Part shown: positions 3,907 through 63,552 of the stretch, one piece after another
Layout: each line of letters begins with the position of its first letter
How positions within the stretch are numbered: the first letter of the stretch is position 1
Assembly: GCA_027051165.1 (NCBI GenBank)
Contig: JALTZZ010000029.1
Coordinates: 9,001-73,000 of the forward strand
Direction of reading: 5' to 3'
Source of the DNA: an archaeon
Lineage (GTDB): Archaea > Hydrothermarchaeota > Hydrothermarchaeia > JALTZZ01
Length of the DNA: 64,000 nt
Made by a program: the position numbers and the translations under genes
The notes under the pieces: model-generated
The model's database searches: none
Told to the model about the DNA's origin: nothing
The model's input: the letters and a program-made list of their open reading frames with translations, nothing else

Positions 3907-4370
3907 CATATCGAAAACCGTTGGAAGAAAGATGTGAAGGTGAACCTTCTCTTGGAACTTATAAACAAGAATGTAGATTCCTTCAAACTTTTTGGGCATG
4001 ATGTAATCTCCGTTTGTCTTGAAACTGTCCATGTTTACTCTCTGACACCTTTCCTCAGTGATTTTAAATGCATCTATTATATCAATATTCCTCGTAAGCT
4101 TACCACCAAATGAGACATACTTCGGATTGTATTTTTTTATGAGCTTTGCTATATTCAGAAAGCAATCTGCGGATGCAATAAACATGTTAGATATATGGTT
4201 ACGAACAAATATAACATTTATTATAATAAATTATGTTAAAATATTTACCGCCGCTAATAAATTAAAATTATATTACGCTGCATTGCGTATAGATAAAACA
4301 AAAATATGGAAAAATCAAAAATAAGCAGGGTATTTAATTATAAGATAATAATTTAATAATAATTTGGGGA

Positions 4371-28903: not shown

Positions 28904-28976
28904 GGGCCCGTAGCTCAGCAGGCAGAGCGCCGCCTTCGCAAGGCGGAGGCCTCGGGTTCGAATCCCGACGGGTCCA
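28904..28976 (+). tRNA. tRNA-Ala (anticodon CGC); its 3' part (28935-28976) is the provirus att core
   Basis: Cloverleaf: acceptor GGGCCCG/CGGGUCC with the G3:U70 Ala identity pair; anticodon stem CCGCC/GGCGG with loop UUCGCAA; T-arm UCGGG-UUCGAAU-CCCGA; followed by an oligo-T. Confidence 0.95.
28935..28976 (+). repeat. attL core (42 bp; 3' part of tRNA-Ala)
   Basis: Identical to 63294-63335. Confidence 0.9.
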
Positions 28977-29186
28977 TTTTGATCGTTTTGCACAAAAGAG
29001 GCTTGAGTTAAGCTTATTTTTTACAACAATTTTTTCATTTACAAATTTGTTTTCATTTACGCTATTTTTTGCGTATTTTAAAATATTTTCGAATACTTTC
29101 CGTTTAGCTCTTTTGTCTTTATATACACTATTGATGAATTCTTCAACCCTGCTCATTGTCCTAAGCGAATTTCCAGTATTATACAA
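28935..29186 (-). CDS. int: Integrase N-terminal fragment int(N) of an SSV-type split tyrosine integrase (with in-frame att core)
   Basis: Minus-strand ORF MYNTGNSLRTMSRVEEFINSV...CAKRSK followed by core-encoded WTRRDSNPRPPPCE. The same 14 aa are encoded in the same frame in the int(C) ORF at the other end. The listed 138-aa ORF 28770-29186 is a read-through across the tRNA. Confidence 0.7.
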
Positions 29187-31247: not shown

Positions 31248-31787
31248 CTATTTGGCAATATATTTCTGTAAAAAAGAACCATCCAGAAATATAGGTAATT
31301 CATCTACATTTTTAAGTTTTTTAATAATCTCCTGTTTAATAATAGCTTTTATATCTTTTCTTTTTAAAATACCATCAAAAATCAATTTTACATCTGTATG
31401 AATTGTATAAAAAGACTTTCTTGTAACAATATTAAAATTACATGCTGGACATCTCCATTTTACTAAAAAAATTAATCTTAATCTTGAAAGTAGATGTTCA
31501 CTTTCTTTCAGTTTGCTCGAGCAATTAGGACAATAAGGCGTTTCTTCTATTAGAAAATTTTCTAAATTTAAATTGATTTCGTCTACCATTGGACTTGGAA
31601 TAGAAAAGACGTTGTAGAAATTAACATGCCAAATTACTGGTTTTGTTAGTGGATGTGGAAATTTTATAATAATATCTGGAGCACTATCATATAATGCTCT
31701 ATCATAAGTTGAACCTAAAACAATTGGTGGATAGTTTTTATTATAGTCTTCTTTATACTTTTTCATTAAAACACCTATAAAAATCAT
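31248..31787 (-). CDS. Hypothetical membrane-anchored zinc-ribbon protein
   Basis: N-terminal hydrophobic segment; CPNCSSK...CPACNF zinc ribbon. Confidence 0.3.
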   Translation of the reverse strand: MIFIGVLMKKYKEDYNKNYPPIVLGSTYDRALYDSAPDIIIKFPHPLTKPVIWHVNFYNVFSIPSPMVDEINLNLENFLIEETPYCPNCSSKLKESEHLLSRLRLIFLVKWRCPACNFNIVTRKSFYTIHTDVKLIFDGILKRKDIKAIIKQEIIKKLKNVDELPIFLDGSFLQKYIAK

Positions 31788-32075
31788 TGTAAAAATAACA
31801 AGTATAAGAAATTTATAATTATTTTGGAGAATTTTTCTTCTCTATAATTTAATATATAAAAACCGAGTGTAGGAACAGAAACTGGCATAACAAAGAAAAT
31901 TTCAATTAGTTTTTTTATTATGGCAGTAGCCATAAAAACAAAAAATCCATTAAAAAACAAAAATCTTGTCTGAACATTTGTATTTATATTCTAAAATAAA
32001 ACAGTTATAAATGTATGTATATTTGTTCAACTATTTTTTATGTTGCTACGTTTGTATATACATTTGGGTGGTAAA

Positions 32076-32504
32076 ATGTGCCCAACAGTTTTACAAAAGA
32101 AAGAGGAAACAATAAGTATAAGAATACCTACAAAAACAAAAGAAGAATTTAAATTGGCTGTGAAAGAGTTAGGGGAGTTTACTTCTATAAGTGATGCGAT
32201 AGAACACTTTATAAGAATGTATATAGAGAAATGGAAAGTTTTAACAGGTAAAGCAGATAAGGACATTATTTTTAAGCAATTACAAGGAGAACCTAACGAG
32301 CCTGCCGAGCCTCAGAGCGAAAGCAACCTTGAAAAAGACATAGAGGACTATGCAAAGTTATACATAGAATACAAGAGCGGTAAAGTGTCTCCAGAAGCTG
32401 TTGACAAGAAATATGCAGAGATTATTGAAAAACACGGAATAACAAGAGAAGAATTCGGGAAGCTGGTTTTCAAGAAGCTTAAGGAACTTGGCTGGGAGGG
32501 TTAA
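32076..32504 (+). CDS. Putative RHH-type DNA-binding protein
   Basis: ISIRIPTKTKEEFKLAVKELGEFTSISDAIEHFIRMYIEK is an RHH-like N-terminus; ATG 32076 is the likely start. Confidence 0.35.
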   Translation: MCPTVLQKKEETISIRIPTKTKEEFKLAVKELGEFTSISDAIEHFIRMYIEKWKVLTGKADKDIIFKQLQGEPNEPAEPQSESNLEKDIEDYAKLYIEYKSGKVSPEAVDKKYAEIIEKHGITREEFGKLVFKKLKELGWEG

Positions 32505-32507
32505 GCG

Positions 32508-32750
32508 ATGCTAAGAACAGAAATCGAAATTTCATGCGAGCACGCTATCAAAAGTCTTCTTTTGCAAATGCTAAGCGATGATATTAAGTGTTTAACATGC
32601 AAATCACCGCTACCAAGAGACGATATACGTAGCACGGGCTTACACGATCCAGACTGCCTGTGGAACTACTACATCGAGTGCCCAAAATGCGGCTACCAGA
32701 ATAACTTAGCGAAGCTACTGAAAATCTGGGAGTGTACCTGCAGGAGATAG
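32508..32750 (+). CDS. Small zinc-finger protein
   Basis: CLTCKSP...CPKCGYQ. Confidence 0.3.
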   Translation: MLRTEIEISCEHAIKSLLLQMLSDDIKCLTCKSPLPRDDIRSTGLHDPDCLWNYYIECPKCGYQNNLAKLLKIWECTCRR

Positions 32751-32754
32751 AAAA

Positions 32755-33408
32755 ATGGTAGAAGAGGAAATAAAAGACAAGGTAAACAGAATGCTTGGCA
32801 CGGAGCAGGCAAAGCTCAGCGAGATACAAATTGTTGATGACATGGACGAAGATTTAATAATCAAGGAGAAGGTAGAGGGAACAGATGCATTAGTTTACAA
32901 AATCAAGGATAAATACTACCTGAGCATTCAGGGAGTGATGTATGCCGCACTGAGGCGAGGAAACATTCACATAGTAACCGTAGACATCAGAAAATTCGGC
33001 GATAAAGAAGTTGGCTACTGCGAGGCAATGGATTTAAAGAGAAACGTGAAGATAGCAGCAATAGCGGAGAGATACACAAACGAGCAGTATAAAGTAACAA
33101 CGCTGATAAACAACTTCAAGAAACAAGAGAAAAAGAGAGAATACGATCATTTCGCAGAGAAGATAGTTGAGCACTTTCACAAAGACGTAAAAGAGCGAAA
33201 TCTTGCTATAAACCTCGAAACATACGTTGAGATCAGAAAGCTAAGGGAACTAATGACGATAAGAAAGCTGCTCGGAAAGCTGATAGACACGATAGAAGAG
33301 ACAGACAGCTACAGCAGCTTAAGAAAAAGAGTAAAGTCGCTTGAGGGGCAGATGAAAGCAGTAAGACAGATAGTGCTTGCTTTGGCAGAGAAGGAGGCAC
33401 ATGGATGA
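32755..33408 (+). CDS. Hypothetical protein
   Basis: 217-aa ORF within a colinear + strand block. Confidence 0.35.
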   Translation: MVEEEIKDKVNRMLGTEQAKLSEIQIVDDMDEDLIIKEKVEGTDALVYKIKDKYYLSIQGVMYAALRRGNIHIVTVDIRKFGDKEVGYCEAMDLKRNVKIAAIAERYTNEQYKVTTLINNFKKQEKKREYDHFAEKIVEHFHKDVKERNLAINLETYVEIRKLRELMTIRKLLGKLIDTIEETDSYSSLRKRVKSLEGQMKAVRQIVLALAEKEAHG

Positions 33409-33953
33409 AACTTTCGGTAAAATACCACCCGCCAGAGATCATTATCACAGAAAACATGAGAAAAAGAGCGGACAGAGAGGCAAAAAAGATAGTTAAGGCA
33501 TGTAAAGAAGCCGGCATGAAGCCGAGATTTGGCGGAGACTACAGGTCGCACTACATAGGAAAGCTCGGCGAGCAGGCTTTTCTACTATTTCTCAAAAACA
33601 AGGGTATAAAAAATGTAGAGATCCCAGCGATAAGAAGCGACTACAGAATATTGGACCACAGACCAGATTTCATAGTTAACGGTAGGGAGATTGAGGTAAA
33701 AACTCAGATAAAGAGCGGCAAGTCTTATTTCCTCTATCCAATCAGTCAGTTCCAGAAGTATTATCCAGATCTCGTTGTTTTCATAGATTACAGAGTAAGA
33801 GAAAACAAGTGCGTCCTGTATGGGTATATCCAAGGGTGGAGAATAGAGTTCATGAAAAAAGACTATTCGGTTAGGTATCCAGCCTACAGGATACCGGAGA
33901 GCGAGCTCAGTAAAATGGAGAAGCTACTTCTTTTGCTTGGTGGAGTAGCATGA
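33405..33953 (+). CDS. PD-(D/E)XK-type nuclease-like protein
   Basis: DHRPDFIVNGREIEVKTQ gives D-x(n)-E-x-K. Confidence 0.4.
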   Translation: MKLSVKYHPPEIIITENMRKRADREAKKIVKACKEAGMKPRFGGDYRSHYIGKLGEQAFLLFLKNKGIKNVEIPAIRSDYRILDHRPDFIVNGREIEVKTQIKSGKSYFLYPISQFQKYYPDLVVFIDYRVRENKCVLYGYIQGWRIEFMKKDYSVRYPAYRIPESELSKMEKLLLLLGGVA

Positions 33954-34450
33954 CGGTGTTCACGTGTCCTTGGTGTCCAATAACGACAAAAACTCTCTAC
34001 GGGCTCAGAGTTCACGTTAAGACTATACACAAAGACAAAATAATTGACAAGCGAAAAGCCGTTGCCATTCTTGTTAGAACAATGAAAAGCATCGTTCTCA
34101 CAGCGAACGAAAAGAAAAAAGAAGAACTGCTTAAAGCAAGCTTCTCAGTATCGCATAACAACAGCTTAACTGGAAAACGTGCGAAAGCGATCGCATACTT
34201 TTTCTGCAGCAGCAAAGATGCAAGGAAAATGCTCGATGAAGCGTTTAAGCTCAGGGTTAACTATGGTAGACCTAACGGTTCGAGCAATAACGGTGAGAAA
34301 ATAAGAGAATTGAAAAAGCAGATAGAAAACGGCGGAAAAGTTAAAACTGACTTGTTCACTCTCGTAGAGCTACTAAACAGCGAGAAAGACAGCACGACAG
34401 CGAGAAAAGTGAGAGAAGCAATAAAAGCGGAGAGGTATAAGCTAACATGA
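33950..34450 (+). CDS. C2H2-like zinc-finger protein
   Basis: CPWCPITTKTLYGLRVHVKTIH. Confidence 0.35.
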   Translation: MTVFTCPWCPITTKTLYGLRVHVKTIHKDKIIDKRKAVAILVRTMKSIVLTANEKKKEELLKASFSVSHNNSLTGKRAKAIAYFFCSSKDARKMLDEAFKLRVNYGRPNGSSNNGEKIRELKKQIENGGKVKTDLFTLVELLNSEKDSTTARKVREAIKAERYKLT

Positions 34451-34453
34451 ACG

Positions 34454-34619
34454 GTGTCAAGAACAACCTTGACACTAATAATAATGTGTCAAGCTCCAAC
34501 TTGACACATAGAAGAAGAACAACATATAGTGAGCACGGTGTCAACAACAAGATTGATGACGACACCGTAAAAAACAGTAGTGGTAATACATCTAATGTGT
34601 CAACTTTCAGCTTGACACC
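34454..34619. promoter_or_regulatory. Array of three palindromic sites GTGTCAAG-N6-CTTGACAC, plus a half-site (candidate origin/iteron or regulator-binding array)
   Basis: Palindromes at 34454-34475, 34486-34507 and 34598-34619 lie inside the low-complexity (N/S/T-rich) N-terminal part of ORF 34447-35211. Confidence 0.5.
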
Positions 34620-34635
34620 AGAAGAAGCAGCAGAC

Positions 34636-35211
34636 ATGGTTGATATATTAGCAGAATTAAAATATAATAAAAACAAGCTGAAGCTTGCTTATTTTCTTGT
34701 AAAAAACAGAAACTATATAAGCGTAACAGAGGCGGCGAAGCTATTAAAAGTGAAAAGACAGGCAATCCATCAAATGCTTGAGAATTCAGAGATATTTAAC
34801 TACGCTGTTATAAAAACAAAATTTTCTGAAGGTTATAAAAGCAAAAAAATAACATTATCAGCATTCTGCGAAAAATATGCAGCAGTTATAGAAAAATTGG
34901 CAACGAAAAAACTAAGTCTCGAAGAAATTTTAAAAATTGAGAAATTTAAACCAGCGATACAAATGAAAGCTGAGAAATACTTTCAAAACAATGGAAAAGA
35001 GTTTGTAAAACGTGGTATAGAAATATACATTAATGAAGGTGAACGAGGGCTCAACAAATATTTACAGGGTCTTTCTACCAAGCCGTTTTGGACTCAAGAA
35101 AAAGTAACAGTTCTAAAAGAAATTATCATGGAAAAGATCAGAAAAAAAATGAATTCTACTTATTTTTTAATTAAAATGAAAATTTATGAAAAATTAGAAG
35201 GGGAGGAATAA
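34636..35211 (+). CDS. Hypothetical protein with HTH-like segment
   Basis: ISVTEAAKLLKVKRQAIHQMLEN is HTH-like. The ORF formally opens at 34447, but its first ~60 codons are low-complexity and carry the palindrome array, so Met at 34636 is the more plausible start. Confidence 0.3.
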   Translation: MVDILAELKYNKNKLKLAYFLVKNRNYISVTEAAKLLKVKRQAIHQMLENSEIFNYAVIKTKFSEGYKSKKITLSAFCEKYAAVIEKLATKKLSLEEILKIEKFKPAIQMKAEKYFQNNGKEFVKRGIEIYINEGERGLNKYLQGLSTKPFWTQEKVTVLKEIIMEKIRKKMNSTYFLIKMKIYEKLEGEE

Positions 35212-35214
35212 AGA

Positions 35215-35736
35215 ATGGAAAGAATAGTTAAATGCAAGCTTGACTGCTGCGATACCAGAGCTTTCGAGTGCGACGAGGAAAATTGCAAAACACAGATGCT
35301 GTGCTGCAAATGTCCAAGTGGAACACCTGAGTTACCAAAAGTAGAGTGTCCAAACTGCGGGGCTATTGCAGACATGGGCGAGCTTTTCGAAGTCGAGACA
35401 TTCCCAGAAACGAGCTTACAAAAGATTTACAACAAAATAGCAGGAATAATAAACGATTTCATTTTATTTTTAAGGGACGTATTAAGTGGCGGAGTGTATT
35501 GCTCTAAATGGCCAAAAATCATAAACAAAATAACGGGAAGATCAAGGTTTAGAGTTCCCTACAAGATAGTTGATAAGCTACTGCCAACACTTCCATACTG
35601 GAGACTAAAATATTTTGATCATTTTATTTGGATCTGTAAAAAATGCGGAATGAAGTATTTAGACCCGGATCCTTATACTTTTCTAACTTTTGATTATAAA
35701 AAAGAGGAGTGTGTGGAAAATGAAGGCCGTTTGTGA
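35215..35736 (+). CDS. Cys-rich hypothetical protein
   Basis: Multiple CxxC pairs (CKLDCCD, CCKCPSG, CPNCG, CKKCGM); GGAGG Shine-Dalgarno sequence upstream. Confidence 0.35.
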   Translation: MERIVKCKLDCCDTRAFECDEENCKTQMLCCKCPSGTPELPKVECPNCGAIADMGELFEVETFPETSLQKIYNKIAGIINDFILFLRDVLSGGVYCSKWPKIINKITGRSRFRVPYKIVDKLLPTLPYWRLKYFDHFIWICKKCGMKYLDPDPYTFLTFDYKKEECVENEGRL

Positions 35737-36466
35737 AGGAAAATACCTACGGGGAGTATTTGAGGCGGTAGGAAAGATAGTGAACACAGCAATACTGAAA
35801 GCAAGCGAGGACGGCATGAAACTGAGAGCAATGAACTCAGAGCATACAATACTCGTTGACATGGAACTTGAAAAAAGTTTGTTCGAAGACTACGAAATAG
35901 AAGAAGACGAAAGCATAGGCATAGACATTAGCCAGCTGCTGAAGATACTGAAAAGAGCGAAAAAAGACGACAACATTACATTAGAAACAAGCAAAGAAAC
36001 AATAAAAATAACAATTGACGGCACTGCAGAGAGGACGTTTGAGTTCCCAGCATTAGCAGACGTCGAAGAAGATGAAATAAAGTTCCCAGAGCTTAACTAT
36101 GAAGCGGAAATATCCATTGAGGATCCAAGTGTCCTTAAGGAAATCATGAAAGACGTGGAGATAGTAGGCAACGCTGCTGTGCTTAAGGCAACAAAAGAGG
36201 AGTTTATAATACAAGCTCAAGGAAACGGATATGCATTCTCGAGCTACAAAGCGGCTCCCAGCAACATAAGCCTAAACCTTGATGAAGAGGCTGAAGAGGT
36301 AAAAAGTGCGTTCTCCGTCGAGCTCCTGAAGGATGTTCTGAGAGCGGACAAGTTCATATATAATGCTAAGGTCCATCTTGGCAACGACATCCCACTTAAG
36401 CTTGAGTATACAGGGCCGGGAATAAAGCTGACATACCTAATAGCCCCAAGAATCGAAAACGAATAA
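35720..36466 (+). CDS. Virus-encoded PCNA (DNA polymerase sliding clamp) homologue
   Basis: MKAVCEGKYLRGVFEAVGKIVNTAILKASEDGMKLRAMNSEHTILVDMELEKSLFEDYEIEEDESIGIDISQLLKILKR ... LGNDIPLKLEY ... LIAPRIE matches the PCNA topology and motifs over ~248 aa. Confidence 0.7.
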   Translation: MKAVCEGKYLRGVFEAVGKIVNTAILKASEDGMKLRAMNSEHTILVDMELEKSLFEDYEIEEDESIGIDISQLLKILKRAKKDDNITLETSKETIKITIDGTAERTFEFPALADVEEDEIKFPELNYEAEISIEDPSVLKEIMKDVEIVGNAAVLKATKEEFIIQAQGNGYAFSSYKAAPSNISLNLDEEAEEVKSAFSVELLKDVLRADKFIYNAKVHLGNDIPLKLEYTGPGIKLTYLIAPRIENE

Positions 36467-38286: not shown

Positions 38287-38787
38287 ATGAAGCTTGACAA
38301 ACTTGACGCCACTAAGGAAAAGCTTGACAACCTTGACGAGCTTGACGCTGTGACCGTGCCCAATCCCCGCTGCAAAATCTGCCGCTCGCCATATTTGCAC
38401 GAGATAAACAGGATGCTTATTGAAGGCAAGCCATACAGCGAGATAATAGCCAAGTTCCCAGATCTCAATCTAAACAAGCAGAACATAAGCAACCATAAAA
38501 AACACTTTAATTTCATTAGACGAGGGATAGAAAAATATTACCAACAGCTTGAGGAGGGGGCTGACAAGATCGTTGACACTATAAAAATCCTCGACGATGT
38601 AATAATGAGGAGCTACGTTTTTTTAGCTGAAACGAACCCAAAAGAAAAGCCAAGAGTTTGGGAAGTTCTAACAAATGCAATATACAGGGCAGCAAGTTTA
38701 AAACATAAAATAATGGGAGACTATGATGAAGAAGAAGGTTTACTCGAAGAAATATTTGGAAAAGCTGAGGATATTGAAGAAAAATAA
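38287..38787 (+). CDS. Putative terminase small subunit (position-based) with N-terminal CTTGAC repeat cluster
   Basis: Immediately upstream of, and overlapping, terL. The 5' 75 nt contain five CTTGAC hexamers (KLDKLD..KLDNLDELD). Confidence 0.35.
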   Translation: MKLDKLDATKEKLDNLDELDAVTVPNPRCKICRSPYLHEINRMLIEGKPYSEIIAKFPDLNLNKQNISNHKKHFNFIRRGIEKYYQQLEEGADKIVDTIKILDDVIMRSYVFLAETNPKEKPRVWEVLTNAIYRAASLKHKIMGDYDEEEGLLEEIFGKAEDIEEK

Positions 38788-40153: not shown

Positions 40154-40921
40154 TCACGGAGATGAGCTCAAATACAAGTTAACCATCAGCAGCAAATGCC
40201 TTCTAAGGCTCGTAAAGCCATACTCCAAGCTCTCGGTTATCACCTCCAGTTCTTTTGAATTATAAACATACGAATAAAGACTATAGGGCGAGTATTGCCT
40301 AAACTCTATTTCTTTTTTCAACTTCTCAAAATCAATTTTGCTTTTTGCTTTAAGGCTATATCTGCTAAAACTTTTGAACCTAACTCTTCTCGTGATCATG
40401 GCAGACAATCTATCGAACTTCTGCAGGGTTTTAAGCTCCTCATCCTCAATTTCATCATGATGGTGAACGCAGAGCCATCTTACCCTATCGTCCTTAATCT
40501 CGACATCAAAGTAAATTTTGCTCTGATGCTTAGGCGTAGAGACGAAATCATGAAGCAACATAGCTAAAACCATTCTTTCCTGAGCAGGAGAGAGCTTTGG
40601 CAAGCACCTCATTATTTTTATCTTTTTTCTTGGCTTTGGCGGAGCAACATTCTCCTCAACTTTAAGCCAGCGAACTCTACCCATACCTTCGCTTTGGAAC
40701 CTTCCTAAAGAATCAAGTAACAAAACCTTCTCAGGCTCGTTTGTATAATACTCAACAATGCCGAAAAAAGCCTTAAAACTGCTTGGAAACATTCTAACAT
40801 CCTTCTTTATCTTCCCGTAGAATCTTTCAACACCCTTAATTATAACGAGACCGTAATCATGTCCAAATCTTCTTTCCTTGGTAACAATAGGCGTTATAGT
40901 TTTGCCGACTACCTTAAACAT
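40154..40921 (-). CDS. Hypothetical protein with an N-terminal RAMP-like G-rich-loop segment and a C-terminal His-rich (HD-like?) region
   Basis: N-terminal ~90 aa end in LGRFQSEGMGRVRW (G-x5-G-h-G loop). The C-terminal part carries LLHDF and CVHHHDEIED. Last gene of the 4-gene minus-strand cassette. Confidence 0.3.
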   Translation of the reverse strand: MFKVVGKTITPIVTKERRFGHDYGLVIIKGVERFYGKIKKDVRMFPSSFKAFFGIVEYYTNEPEKVLLLDSLGRFQSEGMGRVRWLKVEENVAPPKPRKKIKIMRCLPKLSPAQERMVLAMLLHDFVSTPKHQSKIYFDVEIKDDRVRWLCVHHHDEIEDEELKTLQKFDRLSAMITRRVRFKSFSRYSLKAKSKIDFEKLKKEIEFRQYSPYSLYSYVYNSKELEVITESLEYGFTSLRRHLLLMVNLYLSSSP

Positions 40922-41669
40922 TTAGAACCCTCACCTTCTCCTTATACTCGACCTTATAGCCGTCTATCGTTTTAACAAGCTTTCTGATCTCCTCAACCTC
41001 TTCAAGAACTATTTTCCTCAGCATAACTTTACCGTAGCCAGCATTGACCCCGCCGCCAAGCTCTTCTATATAAAGCAAAGATTCAAGAATGAAATTAAGT
41101 TCCTCATCGTTAAGCTTGGTCACATCAATGAAAAAAGTAAAGTCTCCGCTTATATATCCCTCCTTGAAGTCCTGTATTGGTTTCTTGTCGTAGCTTAGAG
41201 CAATTCTGTTTTCCGTTGCGATGTGCATTTTTACAATAGGAATATCTGACCTATACTCCGCATGCTTTATATTTGCTATCGGGGGACTCCATACTCTTAT
41301 TTTGCTTGGAACATGCATAGAGCCAAATATTTTATGAATTATGCACTCGTTTAGCGGATAGCAGCTTCCAAGCGGATGGAATCCCTCAGGTATAAGCTTG
41401 TTTCCGTGCTTATCCTCTTCTTTGTCAGATGTATGGCAGACCTCTATACCCTTGGCTCTGGCACATCTCATAGCTGCATGCCTTAGCAAGCCCTTGAGCC
41501 CCTTGATGTAGTAAGCTTCCGCCTTGTGCTCCTTACCGTTGTTCGTGTAGGGAACCGGAGCAAGCTTAAGCAAAACCTTAGATTTTTGAACCGTTCCGTT
41601 GCTCGGCTTTGCTATGGGAGTATAGGCTTCAACTCTTATTCTTTTATATTTCTTCTTTATCTCAAACAT
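40914..41669 (-). CDS. RAMP-like (Cas7/Csm3- or Cas6-like) protein encoded in the provirus, with no CRISPR locus in the window
   Basis: YYIKGLKGLLRHAAMR resembles the (S/G)xxKGxLR RAMP motif. A four-Cys cluster (C-x8-C...C-x6-C) is followed by IIHKIFGS (cf. the Csm3 CxxC-RLFGS). C-terminal G-rich loop ELGGGVNAGYGKV. Confidence 0.35.
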   Translation of the reverse strand: MFEIKKKYKRIRVEAYTPIAKPSNGTVQKSKVLLKLAPVPYTNNGKEHKAEAYYIKGLKGLLRHAAMRCARAKGIEVCHTSDKEEDKHGNKLIPEGFHPLGSCYPLNECIIHKIFGSMHVPSKIRVWSPPIANIKHAEYRSDIPIVKMHIATENRIALSYDKKPIQDFKEGYISGDFTFFIDVTKLNDEELNFILESLLYIEELGGGVNAGYGKVMLRKIVLEEVEEIRKLVKTIDGYKVEYKEKVRVLNV

Positions 41670-45370: not shown

Positions 45371-46651
45371 ATGGAAATGCTATTGAAGAACTTAGAGCTT
45401 AATGAGAATAAGAACGTTTTCGTAGAGGGATATGCATCTGCAAACGTGAAAGATCTGGACGGGGACATCATAACAGAGGAAGCACTGCAGCAGGCGGCTA
45501 AGGAACTCACACAGGAGCCGTATAACAAGGTCTTCATAAACCACGATATCAGGGATATCCCGATAGGCAAGATTGTTGCTGCAGAAGTTAGGGACGGCAA
45601 GCTATGGGTTAGGCTGATGCTAAACAAAGCACACCCACAGTTTGAAACCATTTATAACAGCCTAAAAGACGGTTTTTTGGATGCTTTTTCTATTGGATTC
45701 AGAGTTCTTGAACGCAGAGGAAACAAGATAACCCGTTTAAAAATTTTAGAGGTGTCTATAGTGGGAGTTCCCGCAAATCCAGAAGCGGTTGTTGAAAACG
45801 TGTATGAGAAGGGAGCAAAGCTCATTGAAGAAATGGAAACTAAGGGCGTAGTTCCTGGACACCCGTTCAAGTATGGCAAGGATGAGCAGTCAGCATGGAA
45901 GAAGCCAACGTTAAGAGATTTCACAAACAAAAGCTGGGATGAATTAAGTGACGAGGAAAAACGCAGAATAGCAGGACATTTTGCTTGGAGCCCAAAGATG
46001 CCGCCAGAACGTTTCAGCGATCTCAAGCTCCCGCATCACGATCCCAAGACTCATAACGTAGTTTGGAGAGGAGTAGTAGCAGCGATGGCAGCATTGTTCG
46101 GTGCTCGTGGAGGCGTTGACATTCCAAGCGAGGATCGCAAAAAAGTATACAATCACTTGGCAAAGCACTACAGAGAATTCGACAGAGAGCCACCAGAGTT
46201 CAAAACACTTGAAGAGTTTGCAAGAGAATTCCTTGAGCCTGATTTTGAAGATTTAAAAAGTCCAGAGCCTCAGGAAGAAGCAGGTGATAGCATGACTGAA
46301 GAGCTTGAACGTCTGAAAAAAGAAAATGAAGAGCTTAGAAGAAAAGTGGCAGAATACGAGCAAAGAGAAAAAGAGAGATTAATAGATAAAGTGATTTTCG
46401 CAGAAACAAAGCTATACGGCAAAATAGACAAAGAAAAGAGAACTGAAGAGCTTAAAAACAAGACTGTCGTTGAGCTTAAGGATCTGTATCTCGATGTTCT
46501 TGAAAAACTTGCAGAAAAGCAGGAAAAACAGGTTACAGGCAAGGTCGAGGTTCCTCTCGAAGATTCAGAATACATTGAAACAAAATGGGGTAAAGCAGAC
46601 AAGAAAACCCTCGAAGAGCTTAGAAAAATGGTCGGTCTAACAGGTGATTAA
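45371..46651 (+). CDS. HK97-family prohead protease fused to a C-terminal coiled-coil scaffold-like domain
   Basis: N-terminal FVEGYASANVKDLDGDIITEEALQ...IGKIV...LWVRLML resembles the Peptidase_U35/S78 pattern. The C-terminal 150 aa are a charged coiled coil (ELERLKKENEELRRK). Confidence 0.6.
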   Translation: MEMLLKNLELNENKNVFVEGYASANVKDLDGDIITEEALQQAAKELTQEPYNKVFINHDIRDIPIGKIVAAEVRDGKLWVRLMLNKAHPQFETIYNSLKDGFLDAFSIGFRVLERRGNKITRLKILEVSIVGVPANPEAVVENVYEKGAKLIEEMETKGVVPGHPFKYGKDEQSAWKKPTLRDFTNKSWDELSDEEKRRIAGHFAWSPKMPPERFSDLKLPHHDPKTHNVVWRGVVAAMAALFGARGGVDIPSEDRKKVYNHLAKHYREFDREPPEFKTLEEFAREFLEPDFEDLKSPEPQEEAGDSMTEELERLKKENEELRRKVAEYEQREKERLIDKVIFAETKLYGKIDKEKRTEELKNKTVVELKDLYLDVLEKLAEKQEKQVTGKVEVPLEDSEYIETKWGKADKKTLEELRKMVGLTGD

Positions 46652-49441: not shown

Positions 49442-49486
49442 TTGTCAATATATTTCAAAATTTTAATTTTTGAAATATATTGACAA
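49442..49486. promoter_or_regulatory. Perfect 19-bp-arm palindrome TTGTCAATATATTTCAAAA-N7-TTTTGAAATATATTGACAA
   Basis: Carries the 17-mer TTGAAATATATTGACAA in both orientations, in the convergent intergenic region downstream of ORF 49490-50044. Confidence 0.6.
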
Positions 49487-49489
49487 ACT

Positions 49490-50044
49490 CTAAAGCCTAT
49501 AGAAACTTTCATACAGAATTCTGGAGTAAAGTTTTATCGCATTTAAATAGTTATACTTATTACGAAAATTGAGTTTCTTATAAGCTTCACAGTTTTTTAA
49601 ATCCTGATCGATATCTTTTAGACGATTAGTAATTATACTAAATGCTATATTTCTAACTGAGAAATCTATACCCAACTTCATAAAACGTTCAGAAATTTTA
49701 TTTACCAAGTACTGCAACATTCTCAGGAATGTTTTTAATGTGTTCTGTCGTATTCCCTTAAAATCATCAAAACTCTTTCTGTAAAGTAGTATCAATTTTG
49801 CATAGTAAAGTGTATTTGCTATATCATAGCTTTTTCTTTCGTTTTTCAGTTGTTCATAAGCTATGTGCTGATAATCATAAAGTTCAGTTTTCTCTAAATA
49901 CTCTGCAATTTTATCATCATTTTTTAATGCATAGGGTCTCAAACTTCTTGTTTCAGTGCCATTCCACCCATACTTATATTCATATATGTCTTCCTGTAAA
50001 ACTTCCAACATTTCTCTGAGAATTTTTGTCTGAATACCTCGCAT
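49490..50044 (-). CDS. Hypothetical protein, oppositely oriented inserted (moron-like) gene flanked by repeated 17-mers
   Basis: 184-aa AT-rich ORF antisense to the structural module, with no recognisable motifs. Confidence 0.4.
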   Translation of the reverse strand: MRGIQTKILREMLEVLQEDIYEYKYGWNGTETRSLRPYALKNDDKIAEYLEKTELYDYQHIAYEQLKNERKSYDIANTLYYAKLILLYRKSFDDFKGIRQNTLKTFLRMLQYLVNKISERFMKLGIDFSVRNIAFSIITNRLKDIDQDLKNCEAYKKLNFRNKYNYLNAIKLYSRILYESFYRL

Positions 50045-50057
50045 GGTTGCTCACCTA

Positions 50058-50110
50058 TTGAAATATATTGACAGTTCATCAGGTAAACAATTGTTGAAAT
50101 ATATTGACAA
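50058..50110. promoter_or_regulatory. Two direct copies of TTGAAATATATTGACA(A/G) upstream of the minus-strand ORF 49490-50044 (operator/promoter candidates)
   Basis: Copies at 50058-50074 and 50095-50110, 14 and 51 nt upstream of the minus-strand ATG; they contain an AATATAT TATA-like core. Confidence 0.5.
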
Positions 50111-62417: not shown

Positions 62418-63335
62418 CTAACTCACCAGTATAGGGAACTTGTCCACAACTTTCTTGTAGTGCTCTATAGCTTGCATCCTCAGAAACAAATAATGCTTGC
62501 TCCCTACTTTAACGCTCGCCCTTCCTTGCATAAAATCGGCCACACTTTCAGGGATATTATGCAAAACGAAAAAATTATCAACCCATTTTCTTATAGCATT
62601 TGCATCAATACGTGAGTTAACAGGAGGCCTCCATTTTCTTGGGTTAAGTCTCGCATACCATGATTTATATTTAAGCTTTTTATTTATAGATCTCAACTTC
62701 TCAGCAAACTCCGAAGGAAAGACTGCTATAAAACTTCTTTTTGTTCCTCTTGAAAATTCTACCATAGGATATGCCGCCACGTTGCCGTGATATTCTATTT
62801 TATTCTTGTCAAAATTTCGGAGAGCCAATATGGAAGGTTTTGCTCTCAATCCTGTAAAAACAAGCCATTGGTATAGAATTAAAGTATCTTCATCCCACTT
62901 CTCTTTGATTAAATAGTAACCTTGTTTTATCTCTTCATTAGTTAGATAAACTTCTCTTACACCAGATTTTGGGATTTTAAGAAAGCTTGAAGATAGAATA
63001 TCCATTGCTATCCATCTGTTCATCATCTCTCTTTCAACGAGATAGTGAATTAAGTTCCTCACGGCTCTAACGAAACGTTCTTTATCCGTGCATTTATAGA
63101 AAGCCTTCCTAAGATCTTCTTTTGATTTAATGGGTTTATCTAAGTATTTATCAAGGATTTTTATTATTTCGTTAAGATATTCTTTACTCGTTATTTTTGG
63201 CTTCTTTTCTATTGTTAGGTAGTTTATGAAGTCTTTTTCATCAACATCATACCAATTTATTATGTATCCTTCTATTTGAATTATATTTTCATTTTCGCAA
63301 GGCGGAGGCCTCGGGTTCGAATCCCGACGGGTCCA
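62418..63335 (-). CDS. int: Integrase C-terminal fragment int(C) of an SSV-type split tyrosine integrase (with in-frame att core)
   Basis: The minus-strand ORF encodes the core peptide WTRRDSNPRPPPCE, then NENIIQIEGY...FTGLRAKP...HNIPESVADFMQGRASVKVGSKHY (recombinase R / H..R / Y residues). Upstream of the core, the listed ORF start MLILCKTNKK is host-derived read-through. Confidence 0.75.
   Translation of the reverse strand, partial: WTRRDSNPRPPPCENENIIQIEGYIINWYDVDEKDFINYLTIEKKPKITSKEYLNEIIKILDKYLDKPIKSKEDLRKAFYKCTDKERFVRAVRNLIHYLVEREMMNRWIAMDILSSSFLKIPKSGVREVYLTNEEIKQGYYLIKEKWDEDTLILYQWLVFTGLRAKPSILALRNFDKNKIEYHGNVAAYPMVEFSRGTKRSFIAVFPSEFAEKLRSINKKLKYKSWYARLNPRKWRPPVNSRIDANAIRKWVDNFFVLHNIPESVADFMQGRASVKVGSKHYLFLRMQAIEHYKKVVDKFPILVS
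63294..63335 (+). repeat. attR core (42 bp partial tRNA-Ala copy)
   Basis: Identical to 28935-28976. Its flank 63336-~63400 is ~80% similar to 28977-~29045. Confidence 0.9.
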
Positions 63336-63552
63336 CTTTTTATTTGTTTTACACAAAATAAGCATGAATTAAGCTTATTTTTTGCAAAATTATTTTCATT
63401 TTTAACATTATTTTTGCACTTTTCTATAGATTCTAAATAATCCTCTTACAGAAAGCATAAATATTACTGGAGTATAGAAAAGATAAATTTATCAAAATTT
63501 TTATGCGTTGGAAAGATTGATCCCTTAATCTCAAGCCACATCTTACAAGAGA

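Follow-up and report, generated by a model that had tools for sequence, protein, structure and literature searches.

A tailed virus integrated in an archaeal genome has, inside the 5′ end of one of its early genes, an array of four two-fold symmetric sites within 170 bp. The array is found only once in the window (the whole 64-kb stretch of DNA that was analysed), it recurs with mirrored substitutions in the only known homologue of the gene, and DNA of low duplex stability directly follows it. From its shared layout and the mirrored change of the word in that only relative, we regard it as a real, though putative, array of binding sites, and the earlier reading of the palindromes as sites of a dimeric protein is strengthened by these mirrored half-site changes. 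Tentatively, we propose that the sites belong to a virus-specific DNA-binding protein and that the array acts like the lambda origin inside gene O. We know of no tailed virus of Archaeoglobi, ANME-1 or similar archaea in which a replication origin or another cis-acting control element has been mapped; this array and those of its relatives provide concrete candidates for such elements.

Sites and genomic setting of the array

Inspection of the sequence and a pattern search with the consensus word GTGTCAAS-N6-CTTGACAC gave matches at 34454-34475, 34486-34507 and 34597-34618. The first site, P1 (34454-34475), is the perfect palindrome GTGTCAAG-AACAAC-CTTGACAC; it stands in codon phase 2 and its first base is 7 nt past the first base of the start codon ATG 34447. 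P2 (34484-34509), in codon phase 1, is a perfect 10-N6-10 palindrome, ATGTGTCAAG-N6-CTTGACACAT, built around the equally perfect core GTGTCAAG-CTCCAA-CTTGACAC (34486-34507). P3, GTGTCAAC-TTTCAG-CTTGACAC, is also in phase 1 and has one mismatch. The three near-perfect 22-bp palindromes described in the preceding sequence-only reading are therefore present, although P3 is located at 34597-34618, one base away from the position proposed. Similarly, the arm taken in that reading for an extra half-site near 34539 does exist (at 34538), but it is actually the left arm of a fourth, central site with a long spacer, GTGTCAAC-N12-GACGACAC (34538-34565). The extended dyad of this site, ACGGTGTC...GACACCGT, spans 34535-34568, and the site also has a degenerate N6-spaced arm, ATTGATGA. 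The four dyads, to which no strand is assigned, are roughly helically phased, with centre-to-centre distances of 32, 55 and 56 bp.

The palindrome with up to three mismatches has three matches in 64 kb, all of them in the array, whereas shuffled sequences contained 0.16 on average and none of 100 reached three. The heptamer GTGTCAA, with seven copies in 160 bp, forms the strongest local 7-mer cluster of the 64-kb window (maximum of 4-5 copies of a clustered 7-mer in block shuffles), and the array is the sole recurring palindrome family in the provirus. Exact-pattern scans of viral and genome collections showed no palindrome array elsewhere among the matches listed; the palindrome appeared there as scattered single copies in unrelated taxa, in about the number expected by chance. 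The sites use two codon phases, the peptides which they encode differ (GVKNNLDT vs NVSSSNLTH) and their spacers are unrelated. The repeating signal is therefore DNA and not peptide, which agrees with the DNA-level signal originally postulated.

The provirus of ~34.36 kb is bounded by attL, the 3′ part of tRNA-Ala (28935-28980, forward strand), and its repeat attR (63294-63339; 98% identity over 46 nt). An archaeal tyrosine integrase (PF16795, E 4e-34) is encoded on the reverse strand at 62418-63365. The array, one per genome, is situated in the early/replication module, between early genes and the genes for PCNA and a Cas4-like nuclease, both of which were confirmed as neighbours; HTH, C2H2 and RHH genes are also present near it. 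The genes from 32040 to 36466 are co-directional and tightly packed, with 4-nt overlaps or tiny gaps. Directly 5′ of the array-bearing gene and translationally coupled to it is a C2H2 zinc-finger gene (33950-34450, forward strand), whose product matches zf-C2H2 and Zn_SUZ12.

Some explanations were rejected. TTGACA within the half-site resembles a bacterial sigma-70 promoter element, but the host is archaeal (thermosome, archaeal PEP carboxylase, Bax1). Excisionase binding sites are unlikely at a distance of 5.5 kb from attL, and ends of a transposable phage do not fit an element with a tyrosine integrase and tRNA att repeats.

The array-bearing gene, its homologue and related arrays

The array-bearing ORF (34447-35211, forward strand) encodes 254 amino acids: an N/S/T-rich disordered segment encoded by the array (residues 1-63), followed by an all-helical body. 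The N-terminus had been considered pseudo-coding, with the true start probably at Met 34636. This view is not supported. ATG 34447 is preceded at 10 nt by the Shine-Dalgarno-like sequence GGAGAGGT (34429-34436, forward strand) and overlaps the stop codon of the upstream gene as ATGA, as is also the case for its operon neighbours, and the frame from this codon is open over 63 codons (P ~0.0125 by shuffling). Other genes of the operon have GGAGG-type motifs comparable to GGAGAGGT, whereas ATG 34636 has none. Moreover, the N-terminal region of the homologous gene is equally long and open and is likewise preceded by a Shine-Dalgarno motif, and the position equivalent to 34636 lacks a start codon. 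These signals favour translation from 34447. For annotation, this is a caution that low-complexity "pseudo-coding" N-termini can be translated and rich in DNA signals.

The encoded protein belongs to an orphan family of two known members, the ORF itself and P0125 from the related locus L015. A HMMER scan of 1.84 billion representative proteins found no further members. Similarly, only these two were found in a 5.8-billion-protein database queried with the ORF and with the two-sequence profile, and in profile-based locus scans of viral, genome and metagenome collections together with tblastn of phage records. A TerL search of the 5.8-billion-protein database served as the route to related viruses. 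The AlphaFold model from the two-sequence alignment was poor (pLDDT 50; residues 1-53 below 50, helices after them), and structural evidence was set aside; Foldseek with this model against PDB gave no match with E < 0.8, and a sequence-profile search of PDB gave none. A helix-turn-helix of the excisionase/HTH_17 type was detected at residues 90-116 (34714-34794, forward strand) with scores below the family cut-offs, namely E 2.3e-4 and 21.8 bits for HTH_17 (PF12728; cut-off 27) and E 5e-5 and 23.5 for TIGR01764 (cut-off 28.8). P0125 has weak HTH matches in the equivalent region. With these sub-threshold scores, the match to the HTH_17/excisionase families is HTH-like only.

P0125, the sole homologue in the 1.84 billion representative proteins, shares 33-37% identity with the ORF, and its gene carries an array at the same position and in the same layout (N6 site, central N12 site, N6 site), with a site spacing of about 51-56 bp common to both. 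The offset of its first site, S1, from its own start codon equals that of P1. The central site aligns without gaps with S2 (GAGTTAAC-N12-GTTAACTC), and so does P3 with S3 (GTGTTAAC-N6-GTTAACTC). P2 is an extra site compared with L015 and matches an in-frame 12-residue insertion/gap in the alignment of the two proteins. The half-site in L015 is GWGTTAAC. In the aligned arms of the two arrays, 89.6% of the cells are symmetric (27-37% in shifted controls), and changes were found at five positions on both arms and at none on a single arm, whereas shifted controls had 0-1 such two-arm changes. Position 5 changes from C:G to T:A in all three aligned sites; the same change at every site points to one shared reader. 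The sites and the protein both differ between the two homologues. What emerges is an element of 170 bp, an orphan HTH family with two members and a naturally occurring variant of specificity (GTGTCAAG vs GWGTTAAC).

In both homologues, the DNA directly 3′ of the array is the least stable of its neighbourhood. In the window it is the AT-rich segment 34640-34720 (no strand assigned), a candidate unwinding element, which falls only in the bottom 2.5% of 80-bp windows of the 64 kb by stability, in a genome that is AT-rich throughout, and which also codes for a conserved ELxxNKNKLKL helix. The equivalent stretch of L015 (4160-4220) is among the least stable 0.13% of that locus.

Related Archaeoglobi-type proviruses also carry single arrays with virus-specific words. 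The least stable DNA of the respective locus lies next to or between the sites of such arrays (L013, L136 and L138; the arrays of L136, L138 and L139 bracket it). In L013, two tandem modules with five palindromes each make up an array of 10. A comparable array was found neither in the retrieved parts of the Geoglobus provirus L014 nor in those of L137, so the array is not universal in the group. In one pair of relatives, a clean swap between GTATAC and GTTAAC affects all 8-9 copies in DNA backgrounds which are ~79-82% identical; this swap in near-identical backgrounds constitutes a parallel natural experiment. L138 and L140 are of the GTATAC type, L139 and L141 of the GTTAAC type. The words differ from virus to virus, which argues for a reader encoded by the virus and not by the host. 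Despite the motif swap between L138 and L139, the array-bearing protein is nearly unchanged outside the motif-encoded peptide, and the reader in these two is probably not the body of the cis-encoded protein.

A possible lambda-like origin

We propose that the array is a cis-acting cluster of sites for one virus-specific protein that binds dsDNA sequence-specifically, placed within a translated, disordered N-terminal coding region. We infer that the reader would most likely be the protein encoded by the array-bearing HTH gene. Dimers of this protein would occupy the four roughly helically phased dyads and build a nucleoprotein complex, which could melt the unstable AT-rich DNA just downstream (34640-34720); host replication proteins and the viral PCNA would then load at the melted DNA, and binding would in this way start replication. 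The product of the C2H2 gene is an alternative candidate reader. Its finger resembles those encoded by two C2H2 genes directly 5′ of the array in L139. As a universal reader it is weakened by L138, L140 and L015, from which such an upstream gene is missing.

Among the closest known systems is the lambda origin in gene O. There, too, a gene for a DNA-binding protein in an early/replication operon contains several dyad sites with an AT-rich tract behind them, relatives differ in their number of sites by in-frame insertions of ~12-13 residues, and the sites and the protein are type-specific (PMC7466680). In lambdoid origins, a gain of two iterons lengthens the O protein by 13 residues (PMC7466680). 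In the window, the repeated dyads are likewise inside the coding sequence of an HTH protein (four sites at 34454-34618 in the ORF 34447-35211), and the AT-rich segment behind them is suggestive of an easily melted tract. There are differences as well. The present host is archaeal, no P-like helicase loader is found here, and the half-sites have an 8-N6-8 architecture. The sites occupy the very beginning of the gene and encode a disordered N-terminus, whereas the lambda sites lie mid-gene. A profile search gave no match of the ORF to Phage_rep_O or other initiator families.

The inverted sites beside or bracketing an AT-rich unwinding element are also reminiscent of archaeal ORB/mini-ORB origins bound by Orc1/Cdc6. 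In contrast to these origins, no orc1/cdc6 gene, or gene for another AAA+ initiator, was found among the early genes flanking the array (~32.0-38.8 kb). To our knowledge, GTGTCAAG bears no resemblance to ORB consensus sequences. When early and left-arm genes (~29.2-38.8 kb) were searched with profiles, no recognisable replication initiator was found, nor was there one in precomputed Pfam matches of the genes at ~31.8-45.2 kb.

An origin with iterons, as first suggested, is still the best available reading of the array, although the skew of the excised circle does not support it: cumulative GC and AT skew track gene orientation and have no turning point at 34.5 kb. If the lambda-like reading is true, archaeal viruses, too, would embed an origin in the coding region of an early gene for a DNA-binding protein, here an unrelated one, and such arrays would be a source of origin cassettes with which genetic tools for these archaea could be built.

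As regards initiators and operators in general, similarity of the ORF product to initiators was not found, and 22-bp palindromes are equally typical of transcriptional operators.

Other functions considered

The main rival of the origin is a transcriptional operator, which we consider rather unlikely but by no means negligible. The HTH protein or another viral regulator would bind as dimers at the start of its own gene and block or tune transcription that runs on from the early operon into the downstream genes for the Zn-ribbon protein, PCNA and nuclease, perhaps as an autoregulatory roadblock or as an immunity determinant. Dimeric regulators typically have two-fold symmetric sites of this length (22 bp) and an HTH of the excisionase/MerR type, and known repressor operators (lambda CI/Cro OR and OL; SSV1 F55) similarly comprise several sites of ~17-22 bp, a small dimeric viral protein and type specificity. 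The change of sites and protein together between the two homologues would suit an operator, and no second operator set is visible beside this only palindrome family of the provirus. Moreover, in each of L138, L139 and L140 the conserved promoter-like motif TTTTTAAAGTC is closely followed by the upstream half of the analogous array. The location in the window, however, is not that of the known operators, which occupy intergenic promoter regions. The array lies 2.4 kb downstream of the divergent gap 31787-32040, the likely lysis/lysogeny switch, and inside a coding sequence of the packed operon, where no intergenic promoter is flanked or overlapped by the sites (genes 32040-36466). The promoter-like motif TTTTAAAGTC, which precedes nearby late genes, is absent near the array. 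In addition, 4-10 sites beside the least stable DNA exceed what a roadblock would need.

Improbable, in our view, is a centromere-like or incompatibility element at which a virus-specific adaptor would segregate or maintain the episomal genome. It would account for one palindrome array per genome, within or adjacent to a gene for a DNA-binding protein, and for type-specific words which swap between close relatives like incompatibility determinants. Both parS/ParB centromeres and the EBNA1 sites of EBV oriP are palindrome arrays in or beside the binder gene, at one locus per replicon, and the two tandem five-palindrome modules of L013 recall the 'family of repeats' of oriP. Unlike in these systems, the early and left-arm genes scanned (~29.2-45.2 kb) yielded no match to ParB, ParA or an EBNA1-like protein. 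Searches of Pfam, NCBIfam and PHROG with the early and left-arm genes (~29.2-38.8 kb) revealed no ParA/ParB-type or other partition ATPase, and the precomputed Pfam matches of the genes at ~31.8-45.2 kb contained no partition genes. The element is an integrating provirus, and since a tyrosine integrase inserts it into tRNA-Ala, partition is not needed.

A little less probable still is an RNA-level element, in which folds of the mRNA (a local hairpin at +8 and a long-range stem around the central hairpin) would govern its translation or stability; an RNA-binding protein, for instance the RAMP protein of the provirus, might mediate this. The predicted folds are far more stable than those of shuffled sequences (z -5.8 for the window, -10.0 for L015), but repeated palindromes give high fold scores automatically. 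A nested outer stem with a central hairpin is predicted for both homologues, and in both of them the first site has the 7-nt offset from the start codon given above for P1. Mirrored changes would preserve base pairing as well, yet hairpins require neither one word at all sites nor the identical change at all of them, and pairing is broken at position 2 in two of the L015 sites. Furthermore, the words of the relatives are spacerless palindromes of 6-8 bp (TGTTAACA, TGTATACA), which cannot form a hairpin, and some of their copies sit in untranscribed-looking gaps.

The sequence-only reading had also connected the array with CTTGAC repeats at terS. The five direct copies are real; they recur every 9 nt where the small-terminase gene begins (38293-38346, forward strand), just after a TTTTAAAGTC promoter-like motif, and do fit the description of a pac site as repeats in or near terS. 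CTTGAC is the core of the array half-site, a sharing of a 6-mer whose chance is roughly estimated at ~1/1000, and four copies are conserved at terS of the closest relative, L012, one of them being a full CTTGACAC. It is nevertheless very unlikely that the palindromes are auxiliary small-terminase sites of a packaging signal besides these repeats. The link to terS is at most tentative, since other relatives have CGNAAC-type hexamers at the terS 5′ end, and between L138 and L139 these hexamers and the putative recognition helix remain constant while the arrays swap words. This comparison contradicts the small terminase as the reader and the array as a pac site changing together with the terminase. 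Moreover, the array is 3.7 kb from terS, direct 9-nt repeats differ in geometry from 8-N6-8 palindromes, and the L015 array travels with the HTH gene on a contig in which no terminase gene was found in 14.9 kb.

The possibility that site and reader are encoded by the same bases, so that the encoded repeats (GV[KN], NVS and LT here) help to recognise the words, appears highly doubtful. It draws on the comparison of L138/L140 with L139, in which the motif-encoded N-terminal peptide is the only clear type-specific protein difference (SVN/FVN in L139, SVY/FVY in L138), the changes in the C-terminal domain are conservative only and no adjacent gene tracks the swap. If it were true, a single mutation would alter both site and reader and give new replication or incompatibility types in one step.

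Least probable of all is a functionless array arising from a peptide repeat, recent local duplication or chance: low-complexity N-termini can expand by slippage and the family has two members only, but the copies stand in two reading phases with unrelated spacers, occur far above chance, and keep their position, layout and symmetry, with mirrored changes, at ~35% protein identity.

Palindromic sites and their coding context

Reading of the stretch 34200-34900, followed by a pattern search across the window, revealed two perfect 22-bp palindromes, P1 (GTGTCAAG-AACAAC-CTTGACAC, 34454-34475) and P2 (GTGTCAAG-CTCCAA-CTTGACAC, 34486-34507), the latter extending to 10-N6-10 at 34484-34509, and a third, P3 (GTGTCAAC-TTTCAG-CTTGACAC, 34597-34618), with one mismatch. 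The sequence-only reading had listed all three, P3 being placed one base off, together with an extra half-site at about 34539. That repeat arm is present, but it is the left arm (34538) of a central fourth site whose arms are 12 nt apart, GTGTCAAC-N12-GACGACAC, and which is enclosed by the longer dyad ACGGTGTC...GACACCGT (34535-34568). The centres of P1 and P2 are 32 bp apart, or about three helical turns; from P2 to the central site and from there to P3 the distances are 55 and 56 bp (about five turns). Even when three mismatches were allowed, the pattern matched the 64 kb at P1, P2 and P3 only, while shuffled sequence gave a mean of 0.16 matches and none of 100 shuffles reached three. The 7-mer GTGTCAA, found seven times within 160 bp, is the strongest local word cluster of the window and the sole cluster to exceed the shuffle maxima. 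No second family was found by the scan of the window for recurring palindromes. The array is real and looks functional.

The array lies at the 5′ end of the ORF 34447-35211, which encodes a helix-turn-helix-like protein of 254 aa. The true start of this gene had been proposed at Met 34636, which is probably wrong. ATG 34447 overlaps the upstream stop codon as ATGA, as at the two preceding gene junctions, and GGAGAGGT, located 10 nt upstream, resembles the GGAGG-type motifs of the neighbouring genes; inspection of the start region found no such motif upstream of ATG 34636. The 34447 frame is open across all 63 codons (1.25% of shuffles), whereas the other two forward frames contain 4 and 12 stops. 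A TGA occurs inside each palindrome, and every copy lies in one of the two phases which keep it out of frame. In the gene of the homologue P0125, the N-terminus is open over an equal length and a GGAGGG motif is again present, and comparison with its locus, L015, found no start codon there at the equivalent of 34636. In the structure model, residues 1-53 were disordered and the remainder helical. Taken together, these features indicate that the array region is most likely translated. The earlier suggestion that the signal is primarily one of DNA was nevertheless confirmed: codon phase 2 is used by P1 and the central site, which encode GVK and GVN, and phase 1 by P2 and P3, which encode NVS, so that the repeated DNA specifies different peptides. 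The repeat is a DNA feature even though it is translated.

Corresponding arrays in the homologue and in related proviruses

The array-bearing ORF is an orphan. It matched only itself in a word-indexed protein database, and a HMMER scan of the full set of 1.84 billion representatives gave one relative, P0125 (282 aa, E 4.5e-17; 33% identity by BLASTP), which is encoded in an unrelated-looking island of ORFans. Neither a two-sequence profile of both proteins nor locus scans of three collections found further members. The 5′ coding end of the P0125 gene also carries a palindrome array, consisting of GAGTTAAC-CATAGA-GTTAACAC, a central GAGTTAAC-N12-GTTAACTC and GTGTTAAC-TCTTGA-GTTAACTC, with centres 51 and 53 bp apart (about five helical turns). 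In both genes, the first site starts 7 nt past the first start-codon base and the spacer of the central site is 12 nt long; the additional window site, P2, falls where the protein alignment has an in-frame gap of 12 residues.

On the DNA alignment of the window and L015, the three shared sites were compared at their 24 arm pairs. Symmetry was found in 89.6% of arm cells, against 27-37% with one arm slid, and five arm positions had changed on both arms, with no one-sided change. At position 5, every one of the three shared sites went from C:G to T:A. An identical change in all arms and sites is what a specificity shift of a single shared reader would predict, and it is not predicted by independent hairpins. 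This bears on a role of the array at the RNA level, one of the less likely readings: predicted RNA folds scored far better than shuffles, but such scores are an automatic consequence of repeated palindromes. All seven GTTAAC hexamers in 14.9 kb of L015 (1-14860) fall inside the array of 125 bp; base composition would predict some five scattered copies, and the word may be avoided outside the array.

According to nearest-neighbour profiles of duplex stability (80-bp windows), the stretch directly 3′ of the last site (34640-34720) is among the 2.5% least stable of the 64 kb, and its L015 equivalent (4160-4220) ranks among the 0.13% least stable of its own locus. In each gene, this DNA still encodes the conserved helix ELxxNKNKLKL. 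A palindrome within the AT-rich stretch past the array, CAAG-CTGAAG-CTTG (34674-34687), shares its inner four bases and its N6 spacing with the array sites and encodes the conserved NKLKL motif; its L015 counterpart is not palindromic and the likeness may be a coincidence.

Related contigs were fetched via terminase relatives and scanned for recurring palindromes. In the provirus locus L013, the packaging genes are preceded by a 730-bp non-coding gap (1897-2630) with two modules of ~260 bp in tandem, each containing five palindromes with arms of ~11 nt. The words of the modules, ATTTGTACTAA..TTAGTACAAAT and ATTTCTACTA..TAGTAGAAAT, differ by one word (GTACTA vs CTACTA), and the gap additionally holds two copies of GGTGACTA-N5-TAGTCACC. 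In the Archaeoglobus sulfaticallidus provirus L136 and in the locus L138, a single array lies downstream of PCNA (TGTTAACAAAA seven times and GTATAC(A) eight times, respectively); it spans the DNA of lowest stability in the locus and extends into a small gene, whose N-terminal coding region is of low complexity. The small genes of L136 and L138 are homologues of one another, not of the window ORF. No comparable array was found in the retrieved parts of L014 and L137.

Close relatives of L138 from viral and metagenome contigs (L139/L141 and L140) revealed a concerted swap of the word, GTATAC in L138 (7190-7510) and L140 (about 260-570) versus GTTAAC in L139/L141 (L139 2810-3130, identical in sequence to L141), in all 8-9 copies, with flanks ~79-82% identical in DNA. 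These arrays straddle an AT-rich gap into the 5′ coding region of the small gene, whose protein differs mainly in the motif-encoded peptide and otherwise only conservatively. Upstream of the array, L139 has two C2H2 genes, L138 other genes and L140 only a remnant after PCNA, and no adjacent gene compared among the three loci tracks the swap. Since the protein changes conservatively and no neighbour follows the word, the reader of these arrays is probably encoded elsewhere. The finger of the C2H2 protein encoded upstream of the window array resembles the L139 fingers, which makes this protein a second candidate reader.

The provirus and a putative origin

The window DNA is archaeal (thermosome, archaeal PEP carboxylase, Bax1 and MutS genes) and contains an integrated tailed virus of ~34.36 kb, bounded by the 3′ part of tRNA-Ala (28935-28980) and its repeat (63294-63339), with an archaeal-type integrase gene at 62418-63365. 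Its large terminase is 64-79% identical to provirus terminases of Archaeoglobus, Geoglobus and a Methanospirareceae MAG. A divergent gap (31787-32040), likely the lysis/lysogeny switch region, precedes a tightly packed rightward early operon. Its products are, in this order, an RHH protein, a Zn ribbon, a protein of 217 aa, a nuclease-like protein of 182 aa, a C2H2 zinc finger, the protein of the array-bearing ORF, a second Zn ribbon, PCNA and a Cas4-like nuclease; beyond them come the genes of the small and large terminase, the portal and the head. A single palindrome, TTATGGC-AGTA-GCCATAA (31918-31935), lies in the gap between the leftward genes and the early operon. No recognisable replication initiator was found by profile searches of the early/left-arm genes or among precomputed Pfam hits for the genes at ~31.8-45.2 kb.

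Very probably, the array is a cluster of cis-acting sites which lies within translated sequence and is recognised by a single DNA-binding protein, specific to the virus and to the site sequence. The mechanism which we favour, tentatively and at slightly less than even chances, is a replication origin built like that of lambda: the cis-encoded helix-turn-helix protein would bind the sites, and this binding would start replication. This reading draws on the four phased dyad sites and the adjoining unstable tract, the extra site forming a 12-residue insertion, the co-variation of sites and gene, the single locus per genome amid early/replication genes and the absence of another recognisable initiator among the genes scanned. 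In lambdoid phages, O-binding iterons and an AT-rich tract form the origin in the middle of gene O, and in Stx phages the O protein is 13 residues longer owing to two extra iterons (PMC7466680). The window array appears origin-like in the same manner, yet it is outside that family: a profile search found no Phage_rep_O similarity, and the protein has no solved relative and no fold match (the structure model is poor). By the features tested, it is not an ORB/Orc1 origin either. Of the earlier proposal of an origin or iteron array, the DNA-level signal is confirmed and the origin is plausible and putative. To this is added an origin-like array in the gene of a DNA-binding protein from an orphan archaeal-virus family, and the natural specificity variants of the site word offer direct tests.

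The main rival, an autoregulatory operator or roadblock, is less likely; its weak point is the location of the array deep within the operon and away from promoters, and by the features tested the array is not a promoter operator. The probability is lower again for a centromere-like role (the array is not a ParB/parS centromere by the features tested), packaging and no function.

Hexamers at terS and other repeated elements

The five CTTGAC hexamers reported at the start of terS were found at 38293-38346 with a 9-nt period, downstream of the promoter-like motif TTTTAAAGTC. The closest relative, L012, has four in the same codons (858-902), one copy being the full CTTGACAC. The 5′ ends of terS in L013 (3840-3900), L014, L138 (9385-9420) and L139 (4085-4125) carry CGTAAC- or CGCAAC-type hexamers, and in such relatives the putative recognition helix of the small terminase is NKTNLTRHKNH, as against NKQNISNHKKH. 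The hexamers thus appear to track this helix, which fits candidate pac/terminase sites co-changing with the terminase. Between L138 and L139, terS hexamers and helix are unchanged although the array words swap, which rules out these arrays as terminase sites. The CTTGAC core common to the array and terS is unlikely to be due to chance (roughly estimated at 1 in 1000).

Seven exact copies of TTTTAAAGTC occur in the provirus, all on the + strand (38257, 42713, 45342, 50171, 51175, 56684 and 61945), ~20-30 nt upstream of the gene start where starts were checked (terS, portal and the genes at 45371 and 51215). The motif is kept upstream of terS in L014, L136, L137, L138 and L139, and its L013 form is TTTTAAGAAGTC; it is probably a promoter element common to middle or late genes. 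Three TTGAAATATATTGACAA-like 22-mers (49465-49486, 50053-50074 and 50089-50110) flank a reverse-strand gene (49490-50044) within the structural module. Between the terminase and portal genes, a RAMP-family gene (PF03787, 251 aa) and an adjoining 255-aa gene (40154-41669, − strand) form an unusual cargo for a tailed virus.
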